Of a DNA stretch of 64,000 bases, positions 16,662 to 59,663 are shown in pieces. The notes under the pieces were generated by a model that saw nothing but the letters and a program-made list of their open reading frames with translations, was not told where the DNA came from and searched no databases. The position numbers were made by a program, and so were the translations under genes. The first letter of the stretch is position 1. Every line of letters begins with the position of its first letter. This DNA is from Candidatus Kaiserbacteria bacterium (lineage in GTDB: Bacteria > Patescibacteriota > Minisyncoccia > Phycocordibacterales > Phycocordibacteraceae). Location of the stretch: NCBI GenBank assembly GCA_963699165.1, contig OY969413.1, positions 660,562 to 724,561 of the forward strand, read 5' to 3'.

Positions 16662-17195
16662 TCAAGAATTTAACAAAACATCAACCAGCAATCTCAGGGT
16701 TTTATAACCGTTCTCAACTAACAATCTGTCTCTTCTATCATCAGGATTCTTCGCGCCATGGAATAAGTTATTTCTTATGGAATGCCAGAACTCAATCATA
16801 TTAACCCAATCCGAAAGATCCCTGATTTTCCCTTGTTCTACGCATATATGCTCTCTCGGATTCTCCTTTCCCGCGTGTGAACATTCCCAATACCAGATCG
16901 TATCAATCTCACCATTTTCACCGAGTGTACCCAACGGGCGAGTATCGAGCTCCTCTTTAATTATTTGCCAGGACTGATTCAGTTCTTGCTTTTCCTTAAC
17001 TAACGCCAAATATTCGTCCTTGTAGTAAGTGTCACGCTTTAATTCTCTGATTGCATTTGAATCAAGATTCTGGTCTACATATTTAACTCTCTTTAGAAAT
17101 CCTACAAAGGCGAGGTACTCAAAAACATATTTTGAAAAGTAGTCGTCATCTCCAGCTTTCAAATGCCAATTTCTAACAAGCTGCGTGTAATCCAT
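16662..17195 (-). CDS. Hypothetical 177-aa protein with a C-terminal Rx4HG (WHSIRNNLFHG) HEPN-like motif; candidate RNase toxin or abortive-infection effector. Sits in an AT-rich islet.
   Basis: ORF track. The motif is read directly. Composition is visibly AT-richer than the flanking r-protein genes. Confidence 0.45.
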   Translation of the reverse strand: MDYTQLVRNWHLKAGDDDYFSKYVFEYLAFVGFLKRVKYVDQNLDSNAIRELKRDTYYKDEYLALVKEKQELNQSWQIIKEELDTRPLGTLGENGEIDTIWYWECSHAGKENPREHICVEQGKIRDLSDWVNMIEFWHSIRNNLFHGAKNPDDRRDRLLVENGYKTLRLLVDVLLNS

Positions 17196-17215
17196 ATTTA
17201 GGCCTTAGACCAGCG

Positions 17216-18076
17216 TCATTTATCCCAATGTCTTTCTGGAGGTTGCAAATGGAGATTGGTCAAATCTGAGAGTTTTGTTCCCTGGCCTTCTTTATTTCTC
17301 GATACGATAAGTTGTTTCCCAGCTTGAGCAAGATCTCTCACGTCTTTGTCGTCAGATTTCAGCGCTTCATCTACGGCGTCTTCCGCCCACACGTTGCCAT
17401 ATTCCTCATAGAAATTGAAGACTGGCCGGAGTCTTTGCAATATTTCTTTTATTGCCTCAATCTCCTTAACGGAAAAAATGCTTAGTCCTTTATCGTCCGC
17501 TGGGAACCATTTCTCGGCTAAATCCTTTACAAAATAAGAATTCCAGCTCGCCACAAATCTGGGAAGAACCTCTTTGCCACCGATAAACGCAGCTCCGAGC
17601 CATGTAATTTTCTTTTGCAGAGCGTCAAAGATAAACGCGGAAAGCTGATCCCTGGCTTCTTGATTTGGAAATGATTCGAGGAAAATTTCCAAAACATCGT
17701 TCGCAGGCGGGTTCTTTCCGAAAATGTAAAGTTCGGCGAATTTGTCTACCTCGCCAATCGAATAAAATTCTTGTACAAGAAAAGAATCCTGAGTTCTATT
17801 TAAATTTCTCGCATTGAGGGCCAGTTCGTCAAATTTTTTCAAGCGCTCCGAATCTGAATCACCTATATTGCCCCGCATGTCAGCAACAATAGATTCCTTT
17901 ATTCCCCGTACGATACTTTCTTCAGCCTCATTTTCTACGCGTACTGGAGTGGTAAGTAATCGAGACATATCACCAATATTCACATTGGCCTTATCGATAA
18001 TTTCTTTCTTGACCAAGCCCATCCATTCCGGAAGTGGCAGATGATCTTTAAGAAATGGGTTAGTTTGTTCGCGCAT
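17216..18076 (-). CDS. Hypothetical 286-aa protein, upstream partner of the HEPN-like gene, in the same AT-rich islet. No recognisable motif.
   Basis: ORF track. 20-nt spacing to the downstream gene suggests co-transcription. Confidence 0.45.
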   Translation of the reverse strand: MREQTNPFLKDHLPLPEWMGLVKKEIIDKANVNIGDMSRLLTTPVRVENEAEESIVRGIKESIVADMRGNIGDSDSERLKKFDELALNARNLNRTQDSFLVQEFYSIGEVDKFAELYIFGKNPPANDVLEIFLESFPNQEARDQLSAFIFDALQKKITWLGAAFIGGKEVLPRFVASWNSYFVKDLAEKWFPADDKGLSIFSVKEIEAIKEILQRLRPVFNFYEEYGNVWAEDAVDEALKSDDKDVRDLAQAGKQLIVSRNKEGQGTKLSDLTNLHLQPPERHWDK

Positions 18077-19288: not shown

Positions 19289-19624
19289 TTATTTTTCCGA
19301 AGCGGCGGAACCTGCGCCCGCGACAATCGCAAACCGCTTCAACTTTGAAATCGGGCGCGTTGCCTGAATGGTGACCGTGTCGCCGACCTGCGCCGCGTTG
19401 CCCGGATTATGCGCAAGAAACTTCTTCGAGCGCACAAAGTACTTCTTGTACTTTGCATTCTTCTCGAAGCGGTCGACCTGAACGGTGGCCGTGTCTTTCA
19501 TCGCCGTCTTTATGACAACGCCGGTGAATGATTGGGGGCGGGTCCCGTTAGAAGCGCCCTTAGCGAGCGCATCGGACGCCTTTGAATCATTGTTTCTAAC
19601 GGGACGGGTAGTTTTTTGTTCCAT
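19289..19624 (-). CDS. rpsQ: 30S ribosomal protein S17 with a ~30-aa N-terminal extension that contains hairpin H1.
   Basis: S17 core FTGVVIKTAMKDTATVQVDRFEKNAKYKKYFVRSKKFLAHNPGNAAQVGDTVTIQATRPISKLKRF. Confidence 0.85.
   Translation of the reverse strand: MEQKTTRPVRNNDSKASDALAKGASNGTRPQSFTGVVIKTAMKDTATVQVDRFEKNAKYKKYFVRSKKFLAHNPGNAAQVGDTVTIQATRPISKLKRFAIVAGAGSAASEK
19542..19605 (-). repeat. Hairpin H1: arms GTCCCGTTAGAA / TTCTAACGGGAC (12-bp perfect inverted repeat) inside the rpsQ N-terminal extension.
   Basis: Read directly. Member of the CCGTTAGA/TCTAACGG family. Confidence 0.6.
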
Positions 19625-19628
19625 AAAA

Positions 19629-19895
19629 TTATTTTGCTTTCTGCGCTCGTGCTCCGTTAGAGGCGCTCGCGGTAGCCGAGCCAGACGCCAAAGGCGTCTT
19701 GCCTCTAACGGAGCGAGCATGCTGCTCGGTAAGAATGCGGGCGACCGTTGCGCGAAACTTCCGCGCGGCGTTTGGGTTCTTCGGGCGAGAACCGGCCTTG
19801 GCAAAGCGCTCGCCGCGCAAATCCGCGCGCGTCGCCGCAAGAAGCTTTTCAAGCTCCTCTCCCGTTTTCCCTGCCATGGTATCTTTTTTTGTCAT
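19629..19895 (-). CDS. rpmC: 50S ribosomal protein L29 with a C-terminal extension that contains hairpin H2.
   Basis: L29 core EELEKLLAATRADLRGERFAKA... between rplP and rpsQ. Confidence 0.8.
   Translation of the reverse strand: MTKKDTMAGKTGEELEKLLAATRADLRGERFAKAGSRPKNPNAARKFRATVARILTEQHARSVRGKTPLASGSATASASNGARAQKAK
19649..19719 (-). repeat. Hairpin H2: arms GCTCCGTTAGAGGC / GCCTCTAACGGAGC (14-bp perfect inverted repeat) inside the rpmC 3' end. The loop holds a smaller hairpin GACGCCaaaGGCGTC.
   Basis: Read directly. Confidence 0.6.
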
Positions 19896-19914
19896 AAAAA
19901 TGGTGAAAATGCAA

Positions 19915-20337
19915 TTAGCTGCGCGTTATGATGGTCGTTTTCACCGGCAACTTCATGCCTGCCTGGCGCAAATGCGCGCGGGCGATATTCTCCGGCACGC
20001 CGTCGATTTCGAAAAGCACGCGGCCCGGACGCACCTCGAAAACGTAGAACTTCGGATCGCCTTTGCCGCTACCCATGCCCACTTCAGCCGGCTTCATCGT
20101 GACCGGCCGGTCCGGGAAGACGCGAATCCAAAGTTTGCCCGTCTTTGCGGTTGCGCGCGTCAGCACCTTGCGGGCCGCTTCAATCTGATTGCTCGTCATG
20201 CGCGCGCTCGAGAGCGCTTTGAGTGCAAACGAACCGAAGGCCGCAGTCGTGCCGCGCGTATCAGGACGATTCAAACGCTTATCGCTTTTGCGCTGCGTCT
20301 GCCACTTTCGGTGTTTTACTTTTTTAGGAAACAACAT
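19915..20337 (-). CDS. rplP: 50S ribosomal protein L16.
   Basis: L16 sequence and synteny. Confidence 0.9.
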
Positions 20338-20347
20338 ACGAAAAATA

Positions 20348-21058
20348 TTATGCGCGCGTCGCAGCTTCCGGCATGCGGACCGCCGTCTTCTTGTCCTGAT
20401 AGATATTGCCGCGATAAATCCACACTTTGATGCCGATGACGCCGTACGGGAGGTATGCCTGCTCGTGTGCGAAGTCGATGTCGGCGCGGAAGGTCTGAAG
20501 CGGGATGCGTCCCTTTTTGAGCTCCTCCTTGCGGCTCATTTCGGCGCCGCCAAGGCGTCCGGAGACCGCGATGCGCACACCTTCAACCTCGCGCACCGCG
20601 ATGACCTTTTCAATCGTCTGCTTGAGCACGCGGCGGAACGGCATGCGCTTCTCAAGACCCTCGGCAATCATGTATGCGACGACTGCCGCATCCGTTTCCG
20701 GCTGGCGGACTTCATTGATGTCGAACTTGACCTGCTTGCCGGCCGGAAGCGCCGTTGCGGAAACCTTGCGGACAACATCCGTGAGTTCTGCGCGGAGCTT
20801 GCCGGCGTTTTCGCCGGAGCGGCCGATGACGAGGCCCGGGCGCGCCGTCGAAAGCACGATGCGAAGCTCGTTTTCGGAACGCTCGATTTCGATGCCGCTC
20901 GTGTAGGTGCCGCGAAGGCGCTTCGTCAAAAAACGGCGAATGGTCTCGTCGACTTTGATGTTCTCGCGGAACGCCTGCTTGTCCGCGGTGAACCAACGGC
21001 TCTTCCAGCCGCGGACGGTGCCGAGGCGGTGTGCGTAAGGATGTACGGTGTGTGTCAT
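20348..21058 (-). CDS. rpsC: 30S ribosomal protein S3.
   Basis: KH and S3-C domains; synteny. Confidence 0.9.
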   Translation of the reverse strand: MTHTVHPYAHRLGTVRGWKSRWFTADKQAFRENIKVDETIRRFLTKRLRGTYTSGIEIERSENELRIVLSTARPGLVIGRSGENAGKLRAELTDVVRKVSATALPAGKQVKFDINEVRQPETDAAVVAYMIAEGLEKRMPFRRVLKQTIEKVIAVREVEGVRIAVSGRLGGAEMSRKEELKKGRIPLQTFRADIDFAHEQAYLPYGVIGIKVWIYRGNIYQDKKTAVRMPEAATRA

Positions 21059-21065
21059 ATAAAAA

Positions 21066-21467
21066 TTATGCGAGCGTTACTTTGACGCGGCTTTTCTTGC
21101 GGCGAATCGCAGAAGCGCGGCCGAAGGCGCGCGGCATGTAGCGCTTCATCATGCCCGCGCTTTCGACGACAATCGACTGCACTTTGAGCCCCTCGACGTC
21201 TTTGCCGTCGTTCTTCGCATTGGCGGCCGCGCTCTTGATGAGCTTTGCAATCGGCTCTGCGGCGCGCTTCGGAAGAAACTCGAGTGCGGCAAGCGCGGAC
21301 GTAACCGTCTTCCCTTTTACGAGGTCGGTCACAAGGCGGACCTTGCGCGGTGTCTGGTTGTAGGTTTCGAGAGATGCGCGCGCCCCGTTAGACACAACAG
21401 AAACAGTCGCCGCGTTGCTTTTGCGGACGCCTTTTGTTTTCTTTTCTGTTGTAGCTGTTTTAGTCAT
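21066..21467 (-). CDS. rplV: 50S ribosomal protein L22.
   Basis: L22 sequence and synteny. Confidence 0.9.
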   Translation of the reverse strand: MTKTATTEKKTKGVRKSNAATVSVVSNGARASLETYNQTPRKVRLVTDLVKGKTVTSALAALEFLPKRAAEPIAKLIKSAAANAKNDGKDVEGLKVQSIVVESAGMMKRYMPRAFGRASAIRRKKSRVKVTLA

Positions 21468-21482
21468 AGGTGTCTAACGGGG
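21383..21482 (-). repeat. Hairpin H3: arms CCCCGTTAGACAC / GTGTCTAACGGGG (13-bp perfect inverted repeat, ~75-nt spacer) enclosing the rplV start codon and 5' coding region.
   Basis: Read directly. The upstream arm lies in the rpsS-rplV spacer; the downstream arm encodes VSNGA of L22. Confidence 0.6.
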
Positions 21483-21493
21483 TGTGCCATAGA

Positions 21494-21838
21494 TTATTTC
21501 TTTTTTGGTGCCGGCGCCTCCTTTGCGGACTTTGCGGACGCGATTTCCGCCTGCTGCTTCTTCTGCTCCATTTCCTTCTGCATCTTGCCTCCGTGGCGAA
21601 CGAACTTCTTCGTCGGGGAGAATTCGCCAAGGCGATGGCCGACCATTTCCTCGGAAACAAGGACTTCGAGGTGCTGCTTGCCGTTATGGACGCCAAAGGT
21701 AAAACCTATCATTTCCGGGCTAATTTGGCTGCGCCGCGCCCACGTCTTAATCACCCCCGCCGTTGACGGTTTTGCGTTTGCAACCTTCTTGAGGAGTTTG
21801 ACGTCCACAAAAGGGCCTTTGGATAGTGAGCGTGACAT
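21494..21838 (-). CDS. rpsS: 30S ribosomal protein S19 with a Lys/Ala/Gln-rich C-terminal tail.
   Basis: [12 protein letters not shown] ... [27 protein letters not shown]. Start at ATG 21836-21838; the track ORF runs on into IS-derived sequence. Confidence 0.85.
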
Positions 21839-21897: not shown

Positions 21898-22989
21898 TCG
21901 TCAAATAGTTGTACGCGTCCAGTACTTTTGGCAGTCCCCGACGGTTAATGTACACACAATATACCGCAAGGGGGACACCATGCCGAGCGACTGGTGCGGG
22001 CGTTTGGTGTTGTACCAGATCAGCCAGTCGACAAGCTTCAGATTGAAGGAATGAATATCGTCCCGCAGCAGGCCCCGATTCAGCATGATGAAGTCCTCGG
22101 AGACGGTGCGATTGAATCGTTCGACGTGGGCATTCATCTTGGGAGTGCGGGGGCGGGTGTGAAAGTGCGTGAGACCGAGTTCGGCACAGGCATCCTCGAA
22201 GTGTTTGGCGAACTCGCTCCCGTTGTCGGTCTGCAACTCGTCGATATCGAAGGGGCAAACCTCGATGACTCGGCGAAGGAAGTCGTCCGCGCTTCTCGAC
22301 GAGTGGTTCGTATACGCGCCCGCAAAGGCGAACTTCCGCTCCACGTCCACTGCCGTGAGGACGTACCGCTTCACGCCGTCGATGAAGCGGACGACGGTAT
22401 CGAGCTCCATGCCGCGCTTGCCGGTGCGGCGAAGCTTGGTACGGCGTTTCTGCGGTGTTTCCGTGTGATTGCCCGTACGTGCGTGGAACGAGAGCCGGCT
22501 CTGCTGCGGGAGCAGACCGCGGTTCTTCAAATCCAGAATGACCCGCCCAACGTATGACTCCGACACGGAGTGCCCTTCTTCGCGCAGGAGAACGGCAAGC
22601 TTTGCTTTCCCAAGCCGGGGATGCGCCTGTCGTTCGCGGATGATGAAATCCTCGACCTCGGGCAGAACAGTCCTCCTTCGACGCGCCTTCGGCGCAGTGC
22701 TCTTCGGGTCAAGTGCATCAATGCGGCCCTCGTGGGCTTTGAGTTCCTCCTTCCAGCGATACAAGGTGCGCTCCGAGGTGCCAAAGGCGTCGTATGCGGC
22801 CTCCGTCCCGTGCATGTCCCAGAATCCCAATATCTTCACCCGTCTGTCGACTTCCTTTGGTTTCCGCATATGCCGCAATCGTATCGTCCTTTCCCACATG
22901 CTCAACCAGCCCTTCGTACCCCTGAAATTGCTTCTGATGCGCATATATCCTCGGTTATGAGGACTGCCAAATGTATCTGAACTTATGCA
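21898..22989 (-). mobile_element. IS481-family insertion sequence, copy B, inserted between rplB and rpsS. A handful of SNPs relative to copy A.
   Basis: Direct comparison with 15524..16616. Same terminal IRs. Confidence 0.75.
21901..22944 (-). CDS. IS481-family DDE transposase, copy B (start MRIRSNFRG; the track ORF is extended into flanking sequence).
   Basis: Near-identical to 15527..16570, apart from a few substitutions such as H2R. Confidence 0.8.
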
Positions 22990-23032
22990 GCAGTTGGCCA
23001 CGAGCGACAACTTTTTGCTACACTGTCCTTAT

Positions 23033-23812
23033 ATGAAGAAAAATTCTCTTATTGCTGGAATTGTTGTCCTCGTTGTCATCGCTGCCGCCGTAGCGCTCTA
23101 TGCGACCGGAAAAATCTTCCCGCGCGAGCAGGCGACGGCAAACAATCCTGCCATTACTCTCCCGCCCAGCAGCTACTCTGAAAACGCGAAGTATTACGAC
23201 ATTGCGGCAAACTACGCCTCCACAACCCCTTTACTCACGACTGCGGGCGCTTTAGCGGACGCAACTGCGCGCTCGACGATGTACGGCTTCATCCGCGATA
23301 CCATCGTTCAATTCAAAACCGACGGCAATTTCGACAAACTCACGAGCGACGACGTGAAGGCGATGGGTTTTGACCAGGGCCGCAAAGAGAAACTGCAAAT
23401 CGTGTACATGATTTCGTCTTCTCCGCGGACGGTATCGTACATTTTTACGATTACCACAGATACGCTCGGCGCGCATCCGAATACCGCGTTCCGCACGTTC
23501 ACATTCGACACCAAGACGGGCGCGGAGCTTTCGCTTTCGGATATTTTTGCGCCGGGTTCAAACTATCTCGACACTCTCTCAACGATAAGCCGCACACAAT
23601 TGCCTACGATTATCGGTCCCGATGCGGACACGACATTCATCGCGAACGGAACCACGCCAAACGATTCTAACTTTGCGAATTTCTTCGTCGATAACAGCTC
23701 GCTCGTATTTCTCTTCCCGCCCTACCAAGTCGCTCCGTATGCGGCAGGACCGCAGACGCTTCCAATCGCGCTCTCGCAATTAAGCGGAATTTTGAAGGCG
23801 GAATACAAATAA
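23033..23812 (+). CDS. Membrane-anchored DUF3298/RsiV-like extracytoplasmic protein, encoded antisense to the S10 operon between rplB and rpsS.
   Basis: N-terminal TM helix MKKNSLIAGIVVLVVIAAAVALY. C-terminal FPPYQVAPYAAGP motif recalled from the DUF3298 family. Own strong terminator. Confidence 0.5.
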   Translation: MKKNSLIAGIVVLVVIAAAVALYATGKIFPREQATANNPAITLPPSSYSENAKYYDIAANYASTTPLLTTAGALADATARSTMYGFIRDTIVQFKTDGNFDKLTSDDVKAMGFDQGRKEKLQIVYMISSSPRTVSYIFTITTDTLGAHPNTAFRTFTFDTKTGAELSLSDIFAPGSNYLDTLSTISRTQLPTIIGPDADTTFIANGTTPNDSNFANFFVDNSSLVFLFPPYQVAPYAAGPQTLPIALSQLSGILKAEYK

Positions 23813-23852
23813 CGAAATGCCCGCGCCGAAGGCGCGGGCATTTCGTTATTTT
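23813..23852. terminator. Perfect 17-bp hairpin AACGAAATGCCCGCGCC gaag GGCGCGGGCATTTCGTT followed by TTTTTT. Bidirectional; abuts the rplB stop codon.
   Basis: Read directly. Confidence 0.65.
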
Positions 23853-24704
23853 TTAGGCGGCCTTTCGCTTCTTGCCAACCTTTCGTCTGCTGACAATAAA
23901 TACATTTGAATACTTTTTCGGAGTCCTCGTCTTCTGGCCCTTGCCGGACGGCTTGCCCCACTTCGTCTTTGCGCGGCGCAAACCGCGTCCTTGGCGTCCT
24001 TCGCCGCCGCCATGCGGATGGTCTACCGGGTTCATCGCTGTTCCGCGCACCGTCGGGCGCTTGCCCATCCAGCGGCTGCGGCCCGCTTTGCCGATGACGA
24101 CGAGATTGTATTCCTCGTTCCCCACCGTGCCGATTGAAGCCCACGCGAGGTCGGAAATCTTGCGAATTTCAGTCGACGGAAGTTTGATTTGCGCGTAGCC
24201 CGCATCATGCGCGACGACTTCGGCGAAGTTGCCTGCCGAGCGAACCAAGCTCGCGCCCGAAAGCGGAGCGATTTCGATGTTGTAGATAAAGGTTCCAACC
24301 GGAATCTTGCCAATCGGAAGGCGGTTGCCCGGAACGAGCGGCGCATTTTCCGAAACGATAAACGTGCTGCCGACTTTCACTTCCTTCGGGAGAATCACGT
24401 AGCGGCGCGCGCCGTCGCGGTAGAGCGCAAGACCGATGAAGGCCGAGCGGAACGGATCGTATTCAACCGTTTCGATTTTGGCCGGAATGTCTTTCTTGTC
24501 GTACTTGAAATCGATGTCGCGCAAACGGCGCTTGTGTCCGCCGCCTTGGTGGCGTGTCGTGATGCGACCGAAACCGTTTCGTCCGCCTTGGCCGCTTTTC
24601 ACCTTGAGGAGCGCCTTGTGCGGCGCATTGCCCGAAAGCAACTCCTTGTAAGGGAGCGTGGTCATGTGGCGGCGGCTTTTTGATGTTGGGCGGTACGTTT
24701 TCAT
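23853..24704 (-). CDS. rplB: 50S ribosomal protein L2.
   Basis: L2 sequence (GRN..G.IT.RH.GGGHKR, PVDHPHGGGEG). Confidence 0.9.
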   Translation of the reverse strand: MKTYRPTSKSRRHMTTLPYKELLSGNAPHKALLKVKSGQGGRNGFGRITTRHQGGGHKRRLRDIDFKYDKKDIPAKIETVEYDPFRSAFIGLALYRDGARRYVILPKEVKVGSTFIVSENAPLVPGNRLPIGKIPVGTFIYNIEIAPLSGASLVRSAGNFAEVVAHDAGYAQIKLPSTEIRKISDLAWASIGTVGNEEYNLVVIGKAGRSRWMGKRPTVRGTAMNPVDHPHGGGEGRQGRGLRRAKTKWGKPSGKGQKTRTPKKYSNVFIVSRRKVGKKRKAA

Positions 24705-38500: not shown

Positions 38501-38543
38501 AAAACACATGCGTGACCGGCGAAGCCGGTCACGCATGTGTTTT
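38501..38543. terminator. Perfect 20-bp hairpin AAAACACATGCGTGACCGGC gaa GCCGGTCACGCATGTGTTTT between fusA and mntA.
   Basis: Read directly. T-runs on both sides. Confidence 0.6.
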
Positions 38544-41916: not shown

Positions 41917-41950
41917 ATACGCAAATACTACCATATATGGTAGTATTTGC
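41917..41950. promoter_or_regulatory. Perfect 34-bp palindrome ACGCAAATACTACCATAT|ATATGGTAGTATTTGCGT ending 2 nt before the ATG of the YerC/TrpR-like gene. Candidate operator.
   Basis: Read directly. Core ACTACCATATATGGTAGT is shared with 42396..42436. Confidence 0.5.
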
Positions 41951-41952
41951 GT

Positions 41953-42375
41953 ATGAAAAAGAAGACGGAAGAATTGAGTGAGACGGAACGCACACGGACA
42001 CTCGATGCGCTTTATACCGCGGCCGGAGCAGTGCGGGGCCGCTCCGCCATGAAGCTTTTCCTACGAGATCTTCTAACCGAAAGCGAACGAATCATGCTCG
42101 GCAGACGAATTTTAATCGCCCGGCTTCTTCTGCAAGATGATACTTACGATTCCATCAGGCAACGAACAGGAGCGGGGTATTGCACGATTGAACGCGTTCA
42201 TCGATGGCTGAAAGATCAGTTGCCCGGCTATGAAACCGCCATTGCCGCAATGGAGAAAGAGTTCGATGCGCGCGATTCAAAAAAGGAGTATTCTGAAAGC
42301 CCTCTCTTTCGACTAAAGAAAAAATATCCTCTTCATTTTCTTCTTTTTCCGGAGCCGAAACAGAAAAAGAAATAG
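41953..42375 (+). CDS. TrpR-like DNA-binding protein of the YerC/YecD family.
   Basis: TESERIMLGRRILIARLLLQDDTYDSIRQRTGAGYCTIERV matches the YerC/YecD HTH pattern. Divergent from rpsL. Confidence 0.6.
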   Translation: MKKKTEELSETERTRTLDALYTAAGAVRGRSAMKLFLRDLLTESERIMLGRRILIARLLLQDDTYDSIRQRTGAGYCTIERVHRWLKDQLPGYETAIAAMEKEFDARDSKKEYSESPLFRLKKKYPLHFLLFPEPKQKKK

Positions 42376-42395
42376 ACAGGTGCTCCGCGCACGGC

Positions 42396-42436
42396 AAAAC
42401 AAGACACTACCATATATGGTAGTGTCTTGTTTTGCC
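42396..42436. promoter_or_regulatory. Second perfect palindrome CAAAACAAGACACTACCATAT|ATATGGTAGTGTCTTGTTTTG with the same 18-bp core. Lies between convergent genes and could also act as a bidirectional terminator.
   Basis: Read directly. Confidence 0.5.
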
Positions 42437-42460
42437 GTGCGAGATTCTTTCCAGCTACAT

Positions 42461-53431: not shown

Positions 53432-53443
53432 GAGCTCGCAGAT

Positions 53444-53484
53444 AAAATCCCCGCCGGCGCAGCGCCGGCGGGGATTTTATTTGC
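53444..53484 (+). terminator. Terminator AAAATCCCCGCCGGCGC agcg CCGGCGGGGATTTTATTT.
   Basis: Read directly. Confidence 0.65.
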
Positions 53485-54366: not shown

Positions 54367-54380
54367 AGCGAGGCCGGCAA

Positions 54381-54417
54381 AATAAAAATCCCCGAGCAGC
54401 TCGGGGATTTTTATTTT
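54381..54417. terminator. Bidirectional terminator AAAAATCCCCGAGC agc TCGGGGATTTTTATTTT between convergent genes.
   Basis: Read directly. Confidence 0.7.
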
Positions 54418-54429
54418 GCCGGATGTTAT

Positions 54430-57480: not shown

Positions 57481-57547
57481 AATATTTTCGCCAGCGAATT
57501 TATCGAATAATGCGCTCATTTACGCACAGTCGGTATGTGGAAATCAT

Positions 57548-57596
57548 GAATACGGAAAGTCCCGCGACGCTTCGCGTCGCGGGACTTTCCGTATTC
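57548..57596. repeat. Perfect 23-bp stem hairpin GAATACGGAAAGTCCCGCGACGC ttc GCGTCGCGGGACTTTCCGTATTC between comM and the surface-protein gene.
   Basis: Read directly. Confidence 0.5.
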
Positions 57597-57600
57597 ATTG

Positions 57601-59181
57601 CTATTCAAACCCAAACAATCCTCGCGGACGGTATTGCAACGCTTCATGCACGAATGCGGGCGTCACTTTTTCGGAACCGGCAAGGTCGGCGACGGTGCAC
57701 GCAACGCGCATGGTGCGATGATAGCTGCGCGGAGAAAGATTGAGCCGCGTCGCCGCGTTCGTGAGCGCTTCTTTCGCTTCGGCGGTAAAACCGCTTTTCT
57801 CATCGAGCTCGCGGCCGGAGAGCGCGGCATTTGTGAATCCCGGCTTGCCGGTGCGTTTCTCCGCACTCTTTCTCGCAGCGACGACTCGCTCGCGAACTTT
57901 CTCGGACGGTTCGCCGTTTGAAAGTTTTGCGAGCGTGTCATGCGGAACGAGCGGCACTTCAATCCATAAATCGAGACGGTCGACGATGGGACGCGAAATG
58001 CGGCGCGCCTGTTTTGCCGCGGCGCGAAGCGCAACGCGCGAATCGGAAGCAATGGTGTCCGCCGGATTCATCGCGGCTACAATCATGCAGTCCGCGGGAA
58101 AGGTAATCGTCGCGCGTGCGCGCGAAATGGTTACGATGCGGTCTTCGAGCGGCTGGCGAAGCGCCTCGAGCGCTCGAGAATCAAACTCGGGAAATTCGTC
58201 CAAAAACAACACGCCTTTATGCGCAAGCGTTACTTCTCCCGCCTTCGGAAAGGCGCCGCCGCCGACGATTGCAACGTGCGAAACCGAATGATGCGGCGCG
58301 CGAAATGGCGGCCAGTACACCGCTTCCCCGCCTTGCAACAGTCCGGCGGTCGAATGTATGGCCGTCACTTCAAGCATTTCATCATCGCTTAACGGCGGAA
58401 GGATTCCGGCAAGCGCGCGTGCGAGCATCGTCTTCCCCGTTCCCGGCGGTCCGTAAAAAACGATGTTGTGACGGCCTGCGGCGGCAATCTCGAGCGCGCG
58501 TTTCGCGCTCTCCTGCCCTTTTACATCGGCAAGGTCGAGCGCGGGCGGCGGCAACTGCGCACGGCGGTCGCGCACCAACCGAGGCAGCGGCCGCTCGCCT
58601 TTTAGGTGATGCAAAAGTTCCGCGAGCGAACGCGGCGCATAAATCGCCACGCCTTCCGCCAAAAGCGCCTCACGTGCATTTCCGGGCGGCACGAAAATAA
58701 TTTTTGTGCCGTGTCTTTTTGCGGCAAGTACCTGCGGCAATACGCCGCGCACATCGCGCAGCGTGCCGTCAAGTGCGAGCTCGCCGATAAAAAGCATTTC
58801 GTCGACCGGCGAGAGCACTTCGCCCGCGGCGATAAGGTATGCAAGCGCAAGCGCGAGGTCAAAATGCGAACCCTCCTTTTTCAAATCGGCGGGCGAGAGC
58901 GAAAGTACGATGCGCTTGTTCTGCTGCTTCGGAGGTTTGTAGCCCGAGTGGCGGATTGCGGCGCTGATTCTGTCTCGCGCTTCCTCGACCGCCTTGTCGG
59001 CGAGGCCGACGACGGAAAAACTGTGCAGGCCGCGCGTGAGGTCGGCTTCAACGCTGACCAATTCGGCACCGGAGCCGACCGGCTGCGCCGCAAGCGTTTT
59101 TGCGTAACCGACTTTAACCGTTGCGCTTGCGGCGCGCACAGGTGTATTAATTTTCGCGGGCGCCGTCTTTGACGCGGCCAT
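57601..59181 (-). CDS. comM: YifB/ComM-family Mg-chelatase-like AAA+ ATPase.
   Basis: Lon-like N-domain, Walker [10 protein letters not shown]-terminal Mg-chelatase domain. Confidence 0.85.
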
Positions 59182-59187
59182 GGAATT

Positions 59188-59568
59188 CTATAGATGCGCA
59201 ACGCACGTGAGCGCGGCCGGGTCCGCGTCGAGACGCTTCCCTTCGATGCTTTTCCCGCACACTTCGCACGTTCCGTACGTCCCGTTTCCAATCCGTTCGA
59301 GCGCCGAGAGAATCGTATCGTACCGCGCTTCGAGGTCTGCAAGGATTGCATTATTGCTTTCGTGGCTAATGACCACATCGGCCTGGTCGGCAAGGTCCGC
59401 TTCCGAGCCAATTTCCGAGGGGGCCGATTCCCAATCGTTCGGAAGAGCCGGATTTCTCCGGCCGACGCCTCCCATTTCCGTCTCGAGTTTCTTCTTCTCG
59501 GCCAAAAGCCGTTCTTTAAACCGGTCGGTATTCGTCCCGTTAGAGGCAGGTGCCATGTGTTTCCGCAA
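59188..59568 (-). CDS. DksA/TraR-family C4-type zinc-finger protein (variant CxxC-x17-CxxH).
   Basis: CEVCGKSIEGKRLDADPAALTCVAHL at the C-terminus. Coiled-coil N-terminus. Confidence 0.55.
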   Translation of the reverse strand: MRKHMAPASNGTNTDRFKERLLAEKKKLETEMGGVGRRNPALPNDWESAPSEIGSEADLADQADVVISHESNNAILADLEARYDTILSALERIGNGTYGTCEVCGKSIEGKRLDADPAALTCVAHL

Positions 59569-59663
59569 TTATACGTTCCGCGCTAATAATATGTAAATCC
59601 CCAAGGATATCGCAATGGCGGCCTTTAACGGGATTCATGCGGGAATGATAGCAGATTGAGCTT

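Follow-up and report, generated by a model that had tools for sequence, protein, structure and literature searches.

The 64-kb stretch of Candidatus Kaiserbacteria DNA analysed here (contig OY969413.1; hereafter the window) carries ribosomal protein genes of the S10 and spc operons on its minus strand, and three of these genes, together with a fourth gene farther along, harbor short hairpins with a common core whose origin is the subject of this study. The genes concerned are rpsQ (ribosomal protein S17; 19289..19624, 111 aa), rpmC (L29; 19629..19895, 88 aa) and rplV (L22; 21066..21467, 133 aa), with rplP (19915-20337) and rpsC (20348-21058) lying between the last two, all on the minus strand. 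The fourth is a DksA/TraR C4 zinc-finger gene, also on the minus strand (59188..59556, 122 aa), which has its own ATG at 59556.

Three perfect inverted-repeat pairs, with arms of 12, 14 and 13 nt, share the core CCGTTAGA/TCTAACGG, and their presence in these minus-strand genes confirms the starting observation of a sequence-only reading of this DNA. Pair A (GTCCCGTTAGAA at 19542-19553 and TTCTAACGGGAC at 19594-19605) falls within rpsQ codons 7-28, pair B (GCTCCGTTAGAGGC at 19651-19664 and GCCTCTAACGGAGC at 19701-19714) in the C-terminal tail of rpmC, and pair C (CCCCGTTAGACAC at 21383-21395 and GTGTCTAACGGGG at 21470-21482) across the rplV ATG at 21467-21465; the outer ends of the two arms are exactly 64 nt apart in both A and B. 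The 8-mer CCGTTAGA occurs seven times in the window, compared to 1.45 +/- 1.12 in 100 shuffles of the window counted on both strands, none of which reached seven, and the spaced pattern CCGTTAGA-N42-TCTAACGG is present twice, with 0.00 expected. Six of the seven occurrences are the arms of A, B and C, while the seventh belongs to a further copy, D, whose arms are the 8-mer at 59537 and a one-mismatch partner at 59624-59631, and which straddles the ATG of the DksA/TraR-type gene. As had been proposed, the TCTAACGG arm is read in frame as Ser-Asn-Gly in rpsQ (ASNGTR), rpmC (ASNGAR) and rplV (VSNGAR), and the same holds for the DksA-type gene (ASNGT). Besides, a GGCGTC block inside A, B and C corresponds to the 3' half of a conserved inner hairpin described below.

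Empty sites and target duplications

A sister lineage (L132, L005, L006, L139 and L140) carries the same genes at approximately 92% DNA identity, and all four sites are cleanly empty in it. L132 is 91.9% identical to the window over 2,345 nt, the sole internal indels being 104, 66 and 66 nt long and falling exactly at C, B and A; L005 and L006 are empty at A and B as well. The site of D, where MAFFT alone placed the gap wrongly, was resolved by in-silico deletion: removal of 99 nt and of one copy of a 4-nt duplication gave a gapless alignment with L139, extending upstream through the old start codon. The inserts of 66 (A), 66 (B), 104 (C) and 103 nt (D) correspond to elements of 62, 62, 100 and 99 nt plus a 4-bp duplication, and the four sites obey a shared grammar in which an empty site has the 4-bp target a single time, a filled site has two copies of it, and the outermost bases of the element pair with each other.

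Read on the minus strand, element A (19543..19604; 62 nt, T-CCCGTTAGAA...TTCTAACGGG-A) codes for VRNNDSKASDALAKGASNG plus junction residues and is bordered by the duplications CCCG upstream (19605..19608) and CCCG downstream (19539..19542), so that the filled site A[CCCG]T-CCCG...CGGG-A[CCCG]C stands against the empty site A[CCCG]C (wider context ACT A CCCG C CCC). Element B (19652..19713; 62 nt, C-TCCGTTAGAGGC...GCCTCTAACGGA-G) is flanked by CTCG upstream (19714..19717), with one substitution relative to the empty site, and by CACG downstream (19648..19651), which is the same as in the empty site of L005 (filled G[CTCG]C-TCCG...CGGA-G[CACG]A, empty G[CACG]A). Element C (21383..21482; 100 nt, C-CCCGTTAGACAC...GTGTCTAACGGG-G) lies in the ancestral rplV codons 2-3, between an upstream CACA (21483..21486) identical to the empty site and a downstream copy that today reads CGCG (21379..21382; filled G[CACA]C-CCCG...CGGG-G[CGCG]C, empty G[CACA]C); the two A-to-G changes in the latter add two pairs to the stem and replace His by Arg. 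Finally, element D (59535..59633; 99 nt, T-CCCGTTAAAGGC...GCCTCTAACGGG-A, with one arm mismatch) is preceded by TGAA (59634..59637), which together with base 59638 forms the ancestral ATG, and is followed by CGAA (59531..59534), one change away from TGAA (filled A[TGAA]T-CCCG...CGGG-A[CGAA]T, empty A[TGAA]T).

The protein products differ from those of relatives by the corresponding lengths. S17 has 89 aa in element-free relatives (80-95 aa in most homologues) compared to 111 aa in the window, with 22 additional residues after residue 8, and its closest homologue (95% identity) reads METKTTRPQSF where the window protein reads MEQKTTRP-VRNNDSKASDALAKGASNGTRP-QSF. Similarly, L29 has 66 aa in element-free relatives and 88 aa in the window (22 residues ahead of the last five), L22 has 106 aa in most relatives and 133 aa in the window (27 residues at the N-terminus, coded by element C), and the DksA-type protein has 115 aa in almost all relatives and 122 aa in the window. 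The S17, L22 and DksA homologues that bear a source name indicate Patescibacteria (Minisyncoccia / Kaiserbacteria-like). The extended proteins are presumably made and tolerated.

At rplV and the dksA-like gene the element has also split off the old start codon, leaving an ATG within the element as the probable start of the protein today. The ancestral rplV start survives as a minus-strand remnant at 21464..21490, in which ATG GCA CAC is followed by arm 1 to give an 8-codon mini-ORF (open reading frame), MAHPVRHL*; the old ATG lies 3 nt past the rpsS stop, and the TGA of the mini-ORF overlaps the present rplV ATG (ATGA). Because of this overlap, termination-reinitiation would be a plausible route to L22 if the mini-ORF is translated. 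The old ATG of the dksA-like gene now heads a 32-codon ORF with its stop in arm 2, and the present ATG is located 82 nt downstream, within D. A minus-strand promoter-like site directed at the dksA-like gene is also found in D (59568..59597, TTTACA-18-TATAAT), matching TTGACA-N18-TATAAT at 11 of 12 positions, although this is a consensus match only and its use as a promoter in this phylum is putative. The RNA hairpins or the promoter-like site may affect expression. For rplV, it had been suggested that an AUG in the loop, with one arm upstream, could gate translation; the described arrangement is correct, but it is better explained by an insertion into codons 2-3, with secondary effects of the hairpins on translation being possible.

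The S17 site carries the element in five lineages, with arms that are perfect in all of them and inner extensions that differ. Each copy has perfect duplications, namely CCCG, TTCG, CTCG, TCCG and CTCG (four different sequences), the two variable positions always match between left and right, and the interiors are related pairwise. One of the loci, L008 (ENA contig_690), has many of its ribosomal protein genes in pieces (EF-Tu, L2, S8 and L16), which looks like the result of long-read frameshift errors, and its gene calls are therefore unreliable, including the truncated S17 start of P0013. In related lineages, other S17 homologues present recurrent C-terminal tails of the type ...S(G/D)S(R/H)P(T/M)K (P0010, P0025, P0060, P0080, P0086 and P0106) or N-terminal inserts of the type ...HS(T/P)(S/R)S(A/V)P(S/A)(A/V)... 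at the place of element A (P0044, P0082, P0083 and P0086), and these tails may represent further coding repeat families.

The element in other genomes

A scan of one genome per species (185,579 species, 596 Gb) with the pattern YCCGTTAGA-N42-TCTAACGGR returned at least 120 stretches, compared to about 35 matches expected by chance over the entire 596 Gb according to our own estimate with equal base frequencies. The motif is thus abundant beyond the window, and in other lineages the hairpins and the protein extensions are inherited together; along with the empty sites of the sister lineage, these results sustain the earlier proposal of miniature palindromic elements that entered the ends of genes and turned into coding sequence. 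Among the matches listed, the hosts come from a dozen or more phyla of bacteria, among them Planctomycetota (Pirellulales, Phycisphaerae, Sedimentisphaerales), Nitrospirota, Nitrospinota, Omnitrophota, Cloacimonadota, WOR-3, Latescibacterota, Aegiribacteria, Armatimonadota, Ignavibacteria, Deltaproteobacteria, Bdellovibrionales, Spirochaetales and a large number of Patescibacteria, namely Kaiser-, Zambryski-, Nealson-, Berkel- and Saccharibacteria and Paceibacter. More than one locus is present in several genomes, with at least six in one metagenome-assembled genome (MAG) of Planctomycetota and at least four in one Kaiserbacteria MAG.

In the 815 kb of flanking DNA examined, which come from about 100 genomes, all 164 + 164 arms pair within 111 nt, and 26 additional copies with other interior lengths were recovered, with 7 to 111 nt between the 8-mers. 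The element sizes range from about 30 to 135 nt, the minimal copies being plain 27-30-nt hairpins such as CCCGTTAGAAAT-TCC-ATTTCTAACGGG. The ends are conserved as C-CCCGTTAGAAR...YTTCTAACGGG-G, with terminal inverted repeats of 12-13 nt that can be written 5'-C CCCGTTAGA A(A/G)(T/C)...(A/G)(C/T)T TCTAACGGG G-3', and the terminal repeats CCCCGTTAGAAR / YTTCTAACGGGG are found in the window copies and in 146 copies elsewhere. Some arms occur in tandem, nested or degenerate arrangements (L067 31-90, L128 4584-4643, L041 and L050), for instance as two 28-nt minimal hairpins 6 nt apart, which suggests that elements insert beside or into each other.

The target duplication is a general property of the family. 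The 4-nt flanks are identical in 77 of the 146 copies scored, compared to 7.6 in a shuffled control, and the variable middle bases of the flanks are identical in 82 of 123 copies compared to 13.8 in the control. The duplication has the consensus YNNR, with TTTA, TTCA, TGAA and TAAA as the commonest sequences. The outermost bases of the element form a C..G pair in 119 copies and a T..A pair in 12 others, with A and D of the window belonging to the T..A type; position -1 is C in 105/123 copies and +1 is G in 107/123, while -6 and +6 are variable. Two other models, in which the duplication has 6 bp or the site is a recombinase core (arm, 6-bp spacer, arm), were considered and rejected, given that the -1/+1 positions are borne by the element and -6/+6 vary, and the 4-bp model was preferred because it also fits all the empty sites. 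Only six copies were found in 2.9 million viral contigs, a number that is uninformative about phage carriage between phyla. The predicted viral contigs from IMG/VR (L133-L138) show the same ends and some matching 4-bp flanks (e.g., TCTG/TCTG in L138), and L133 and L136 appear to carry one element in opposite orientations.

One of the pattern matches, L021 4303-4362, is truly due to chance, since it lies in the P-type ATPase motif IPLDG...(x12)...SLTGES and has no duplication; this motif encodes CCGTTAGA-N42-TCTAACGG by coincidence, so that ATPase genes contaminate searches based on the motif alone. Such a case could favor the idea that the entire pattern arose by coincidence from the codon usage and the amino-acid composition of lineage-specific protein tails, but the statistics of the window, the exact indels relative to relatives and the at least 120 family members with shared flanks and duplications make the probability of this explanation practically negligible.

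The ends of the element are compatible with translation. On both strands they are free of stops when read as CCC GTT AGA / TCT AAC GGG (P-V-R...S-N-G) and, in a second phase, as C CCG TTA GA / T CTA ACG GG (P-L...L-T-G), while the third phase through each arm is blocked by TAG/TAA. Since this leaves two phases possible, the coincidence of the S-N-G frame is weaker evidence than had been supposed. With two stop-free phases and a commonest insert of 66 nt (62 + 4, or 22 codons), a copy that lands in a tolerant part of a gene would simply be translated. The landing places in the window are the tails at the N-terminus of S17 and at the C-terminus of L29, the second and third codons of L22 and the start codon of the dksA-like gene. 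Overall, 75 of 123 copies are inside open frames of at least 450 nt. In a set of 75 copies whose frames reach 600 nt or more, 54 follow the P-V-R...S-N-G phase and 20 the P-L...L-T-G phase. The search pattern did not fix the length of 26 copies, and in 16 of these the insert is a multiple of three (p = 0.003).

Insertion exactly into the start codon is recurrent. An ATG is present at positions -6..-4 in 20 of 292 element ends, compared to 4.2 expected, and 12 of these 20 open ORFs of at least 100 aa that start with MNPVR...SNGV. A different coding target was observed in L094 (Pirellulales), L107 (Patescibacteria) and the flanks of many loci, where the favored target G[TTCA]C or G[TTTA]C corresponds to the Gly-Phe-Thr codons of prepilin-type N-termini (G|FTLIEL), with elements located precisely at this point. 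In an example of this kind, KLG[FTPLE...LLTG]FTLIEL, the junction GFTPLE retains Gly -1, Phe +1 and Glu +5 of the prepilin cleavage motif.

Matches to Pfam placed the element inside or between domain matches of S17 (in a Saccharibacterium), RsmH, a HypE-like AIR-synthase-fold protein, Dus and ApbE, and within HHH_6 of DNA polymerase III alpha; the same element occurs in histidine-kinase genes and in intergenic DNA of many phyla. This distribution bears on the alternative origin that had been put forward, according to which the hairpins are RNA signals for processing or translational coupling whose structure constrains the protein; autoregulatory protein-binding sites, likewise acting in cis on the ribosomal protein operon, can be added to these. 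The predicted hairpins are indeed very stable (-84.6 kcal/mol and z = -6.7 for B plus A, z = -4.4 for C), the arms stay perfect although the interiors have diverged, the lineages differ from each other in a compensatory way, the four copies of the window are all no more than about 90 nt away from a start codon, and 21 of the 75 in-frame copies of the family fall in the first tenth of the frame. However, a dedicated RNA signal is difficult to reconcile with a sister lineage that has the same operon at 92% identity without any of the hairpins, with the lack of extensions in most S17, L22 and DksA homologues, with the presence of the element in DnaE and the other unrelated genes named above as well as between genes, and with the target duplications that flank the copies. 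Furthermore, there was no match to Rfam 15 in the window at gathering scores and none of relevance in seven canonical loci with E up to 1. Altogether, these data make an origin as dedicated RNA signals very unlikely. The pairing of arm 2 of B with arm 1 of A around the rpsQ start was also considered and discarded, because A and B are predicted to fold separately in both the minimum-energy and the centroid structures.

Mobilisation and relation to known elements

The hairpins of the window are most probably four copies of a non-autonomous transposable element of the miniature inverted-repeat type (MITE). Terminal inverted repeats, a target-site duplication, a small size without a transposase gene, dispersed copies and presence/absence polymorphism were all found, these being five of the six features by which MITEs are recognized; the sixth, a parent insertion sequence with the same ends, was not detected in the window or in the 815 kb of flanks from about 100 genomes. 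The element would thus be MITE-like, coding-compatible and palindromic, with a functional resemblance to the Rickettsia palindromic elements. Staggered cuts of 4 bp with a weakly palindromic target are typical of DDE transposases, and the 4-bp duplication points to a staggered, filled-in cut of this type; by analogy, insertion would be carried out by a DDE-type cut-and-paste transposase acting in trans.

A subfamily of the copies is structured. About a fifth of the 62-nt copies can fold into a compact three-way junction, in which an outer stem of 12 bp encloses two hairpins of 7 bp with loops of 3 nt each, and 21 sequences have at least 12 of the 14 inner pairs compared to about 0.1 expected from shuffled interiors. 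In an ungapped alignment of 20 copies from several phyla, both-sided changes were observed at 7/7 and 6/7 pairs of the two inner helices, the three inner pairs of the outer stem covary too, and sliding the partner columns reduced pairing from 95% to about 40%; since a fit to the fold was the basis on which these copies were selected, the proportion of paired positions is circular, unlike the variety of pair types. The selected set includes copy B of the window and the S17-site copies of L008 and L130, and the S17-site copies of L009 and L131 align to the three-way-junction fold. Copy B keeps an intact junction, with the inner hairpin AGACGCC-TTT-GGCGTCT, while copy A is without the first inner hairpin and folds as a hairpin.

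Several observations weigh against the interpretation of the copies as products of a MITE moved by a DDE transposase. The covarying inner hairpins hint at a role of the folded single strand, which is less in line with DDE transposition, and an ordinary decaying MITE should not show covariation to this extent. No autonomous copy was detected in the 815 kb from about 100 genomes, where no arm pair is more than 150 nt apart and none spans a gene, and when all 887 ORFs with 150 aa or more in 120 loci were clustered in search of a mobilising protein, no family was present in more than five loci; the recognisable top clusters near the copies are housekeeping-type proteins. The only transposase in the window belongs to an unrelated rve-type insertion sequence (IS) without these ends. 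Additionally, MITEs do not usually keep a 12-nt end over more than a dozen phyla, and the location of three of the four window copies within 2.2 kb, with one further copy in the remaining 62 kb, is odd for random transposition. Lastly, the different duplications at the S17 site do not fit neatly and need at least two independent hits, excision followed by re-insertion, or parallel drift.

The copies could also belong to a cross-phylum class of structured mobile hairpins adapted to life inside genes rather than to an ordinary decaying MITE, a reading that we regard as unlikely. The conserved ends without stops in two phases of either strand, the multiple-of-three lengths, the covarying junction and the start-codon preference suggest such an adaptation. 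The junction would mean that the element is active as a folded single strand, of DNA or RNA, and at start codons the element would keep or supply an ATG and sometimes a promoter. The clean empty sites and the lineage-specific duplications at the S17 site would fit repeated precise excision and re-insertion, and the enzyme involved would be widely distributed and as yet unrecognised.

Another alternative is that the hairpins move as folded single strands with the aid of a tyrosine transposase (HUH/RAYT-like) or an integron-like tyrosine recombinase instead of a DDE transposase, which would group them with REP/REPIN elements or attC sites more than with MITEs. This possibility is in agreement with the plain 27-30-nt hairpins of the minimal copies, to which bigger copies add loop hairpins, with the covariation of the inner helices (7/7 and 6/7 pairs) and with the failure to find an autonomous partner with the same ends in the 815 kb of flanks. 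The attC sites of integrons have boxes of the consensus GTTRRRY / RYYYAAC in the order 5'-RYYYAAC...GTTRRRY-3' on either strand, and the core boxes GTTAGAC / GTCTAAC of the element fit this consensus, with a variable central structure in the hairpin and a similar size. Nonetheless, the box order is reversed, with GTTAGA 5' and TCTAAC 3' on either strand, so that the loop closes the opposite end of the duplex; moreover, a duplication is present, and the copies are dispersed in housekeeping genes, with no cassette arrays and no integrase nearby, which led us to reject an attC site. As for REP/REPIN sequences, they share with the element short hairpins, high copy number, frequent locations at gene ends and occasional ones inside genes, conserved bases in the stem, and doublets and tandems. 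REP/RAYT and IS200/IS605 elements are not known to make a target duplication, and a 4-bp duplication accompanies most copies of the element. REP superfamilies have GTAG or CGTC as their defining tag and are associated with genes for RAYTs, in a study that is silent on target-site duplications (PMC3733652); the ends of the element read CCCCGTTAGA, without the tag that this definition requires, and no recurring protein family that could be a RAYT or an integrase was found near the copies in the 815 kb of flanks. Taken together, these differences render single-strand mobilisation improbable.

The preferred reading, a MITE inserted by a DDE-type enzyme, also has to be placed among the families already described, and no description of the element was found in the searchable literature, whose coverage is incomplete, so that an earlier description is possible; searches for the motif and for MITEs in these phyla yielded just coincidental primer sequences and reviews of a general kind. 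PiggyBac and bacterial IS1380 elements have TTAA-like 4-bp duplications and CCC...GGG ends, as does the present element, and the sequence CCC(GT)TAGAAA resembles the piggyBac end CCCTAGAAAG. PiggyBac excises precisely, which would fit the clean empty sites. However, the similarity of the ends extends over only about 9 bases and the target is a relaxed YNNR and not a strict TTAA, and kinship with piggyBac/IS1380 is best regarded as a lead.

The Rickettsia palindromic elements (RPEs) comprise several sequence families of about 100-150 bp that are known from Rickettsia only (Ogata et al. 2000, 2002, summarized in PMC10969869). As with the RPEs, the present element is a small palindrome found in frame in unrelated and often essential genes, translated at tolerant positions and variably present or absent between relatives, but it is as short as about 30 nt and commonly 62 nt, has its own conserved ends and a 4-bp duplication, and occurs in more than a dozen phyla; its length, hosts and conserved sequence set it apart from the RPEs as described. 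Bacterial MITEs such as Correia/NEMIS, ERIC, RUP, Nezha and the QMITEs of Coxiella are usually 70-300 bp long and confined to one genus or family, and a parent IS can be identified for them (PMC10969869, PMC5896051). They share with the element the terminal repeats, the duplication, the dispersed and by itself non-coding nature, the stable RNA hairpins and occasional in-frame fusions and promoter donation, whereas the element differs by having no parent IS in the window or in the 815 kb of flanks, ends shared across phyla, an interior of 7-111 nt and a covarying three-way junction. PARCELs are intragenic palindromic repeats arranged in tandem, known from the surface proteins that Mollicutes and certain eukaryotic microbes produce (PMC2996958), and although they are also palindromic, translatable either way and horizontally spread among distant microbes, the element occurs as single dispersed insertions with terminal repeats and duplications, not in tandem. 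The element therefore seems to fall outside the RPE, REP, QMITE and PARCEL sequence families and would represent a new coding-compatible MITE of unusual breadth.

If so, the essential proteins S17, L29 and L22 of one Patescibacteria lineage with a minimal genome would have gained tails of 22-27 residues from selfish DNA, a type of gain so far documented mainly for Rickettsia. The element may be a general, overlooked origin of lineage-specific insertions and of extended N-termini among uncultivated bacteria. It is also a cause of annotation errors, including shifted start codons, spurious upstream ORFs and contig breaks. Besides, the conserved ends would define the recognition site of a mobilising enzyme that must be very widespread, and the clean alleles of either state, filled or empty, could be used to mark strains in metagenomes.

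Other features of the locus

The S10 operon is broken at 21901-23812, between rplB (23853-24704) and rpsS (about 21494-21838), and the break holds a minus-strand rve-type (IS481/IS3-like) transposase ORF and a plus-strand DUF3298 gene. This IS was considered as a parent of the hairpins and rejected, as no arm-like 8-mer flanks it. In L001, from the same organism, the contig breaks just upstream of rpsS, and non-ribosomal ORFs lie between L2 and S19 in L008, L009 and L132 too. On the other side of the ribosomal protein genes, two minus-strand ORFs of 177 and 286 aa with no Pfam match occupy 16662-18076, after rplE, where the spc operon would continue; the GC content falls to 0.466 in this region, and the pair of ORFs is also present in L001-L003.

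The window also holds other palindromes. Two perfect palindromes are located near 42 kb, one at 42388-42441 (27-nt arms, no loop) and one at 41917-41954 (21-nt overlapping arms), about 470 nt apart and sharing the centre ACTACCATA|TATGGTAGT; they could be a pair of operators or another repeat family. In addition, hairpins with arms of 20-25 nt that are 96-100% complementary and loops of 1-3 nt were found at 57546-57598, 54374-54422, 53438-53484, 38501-38543 and 23807-23851, with no obvious T-tract following them in the stretches read. The two that were compared with the ORF map are at gene ends, the hairpin at 57546-57598 directly past the stop of the ORF at 57601-59181 and that at 23807-23851 between the converging DUF3298 gene and rplB. 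These long-arm hairpins are possibly an unusual type of terminator of this lineage.

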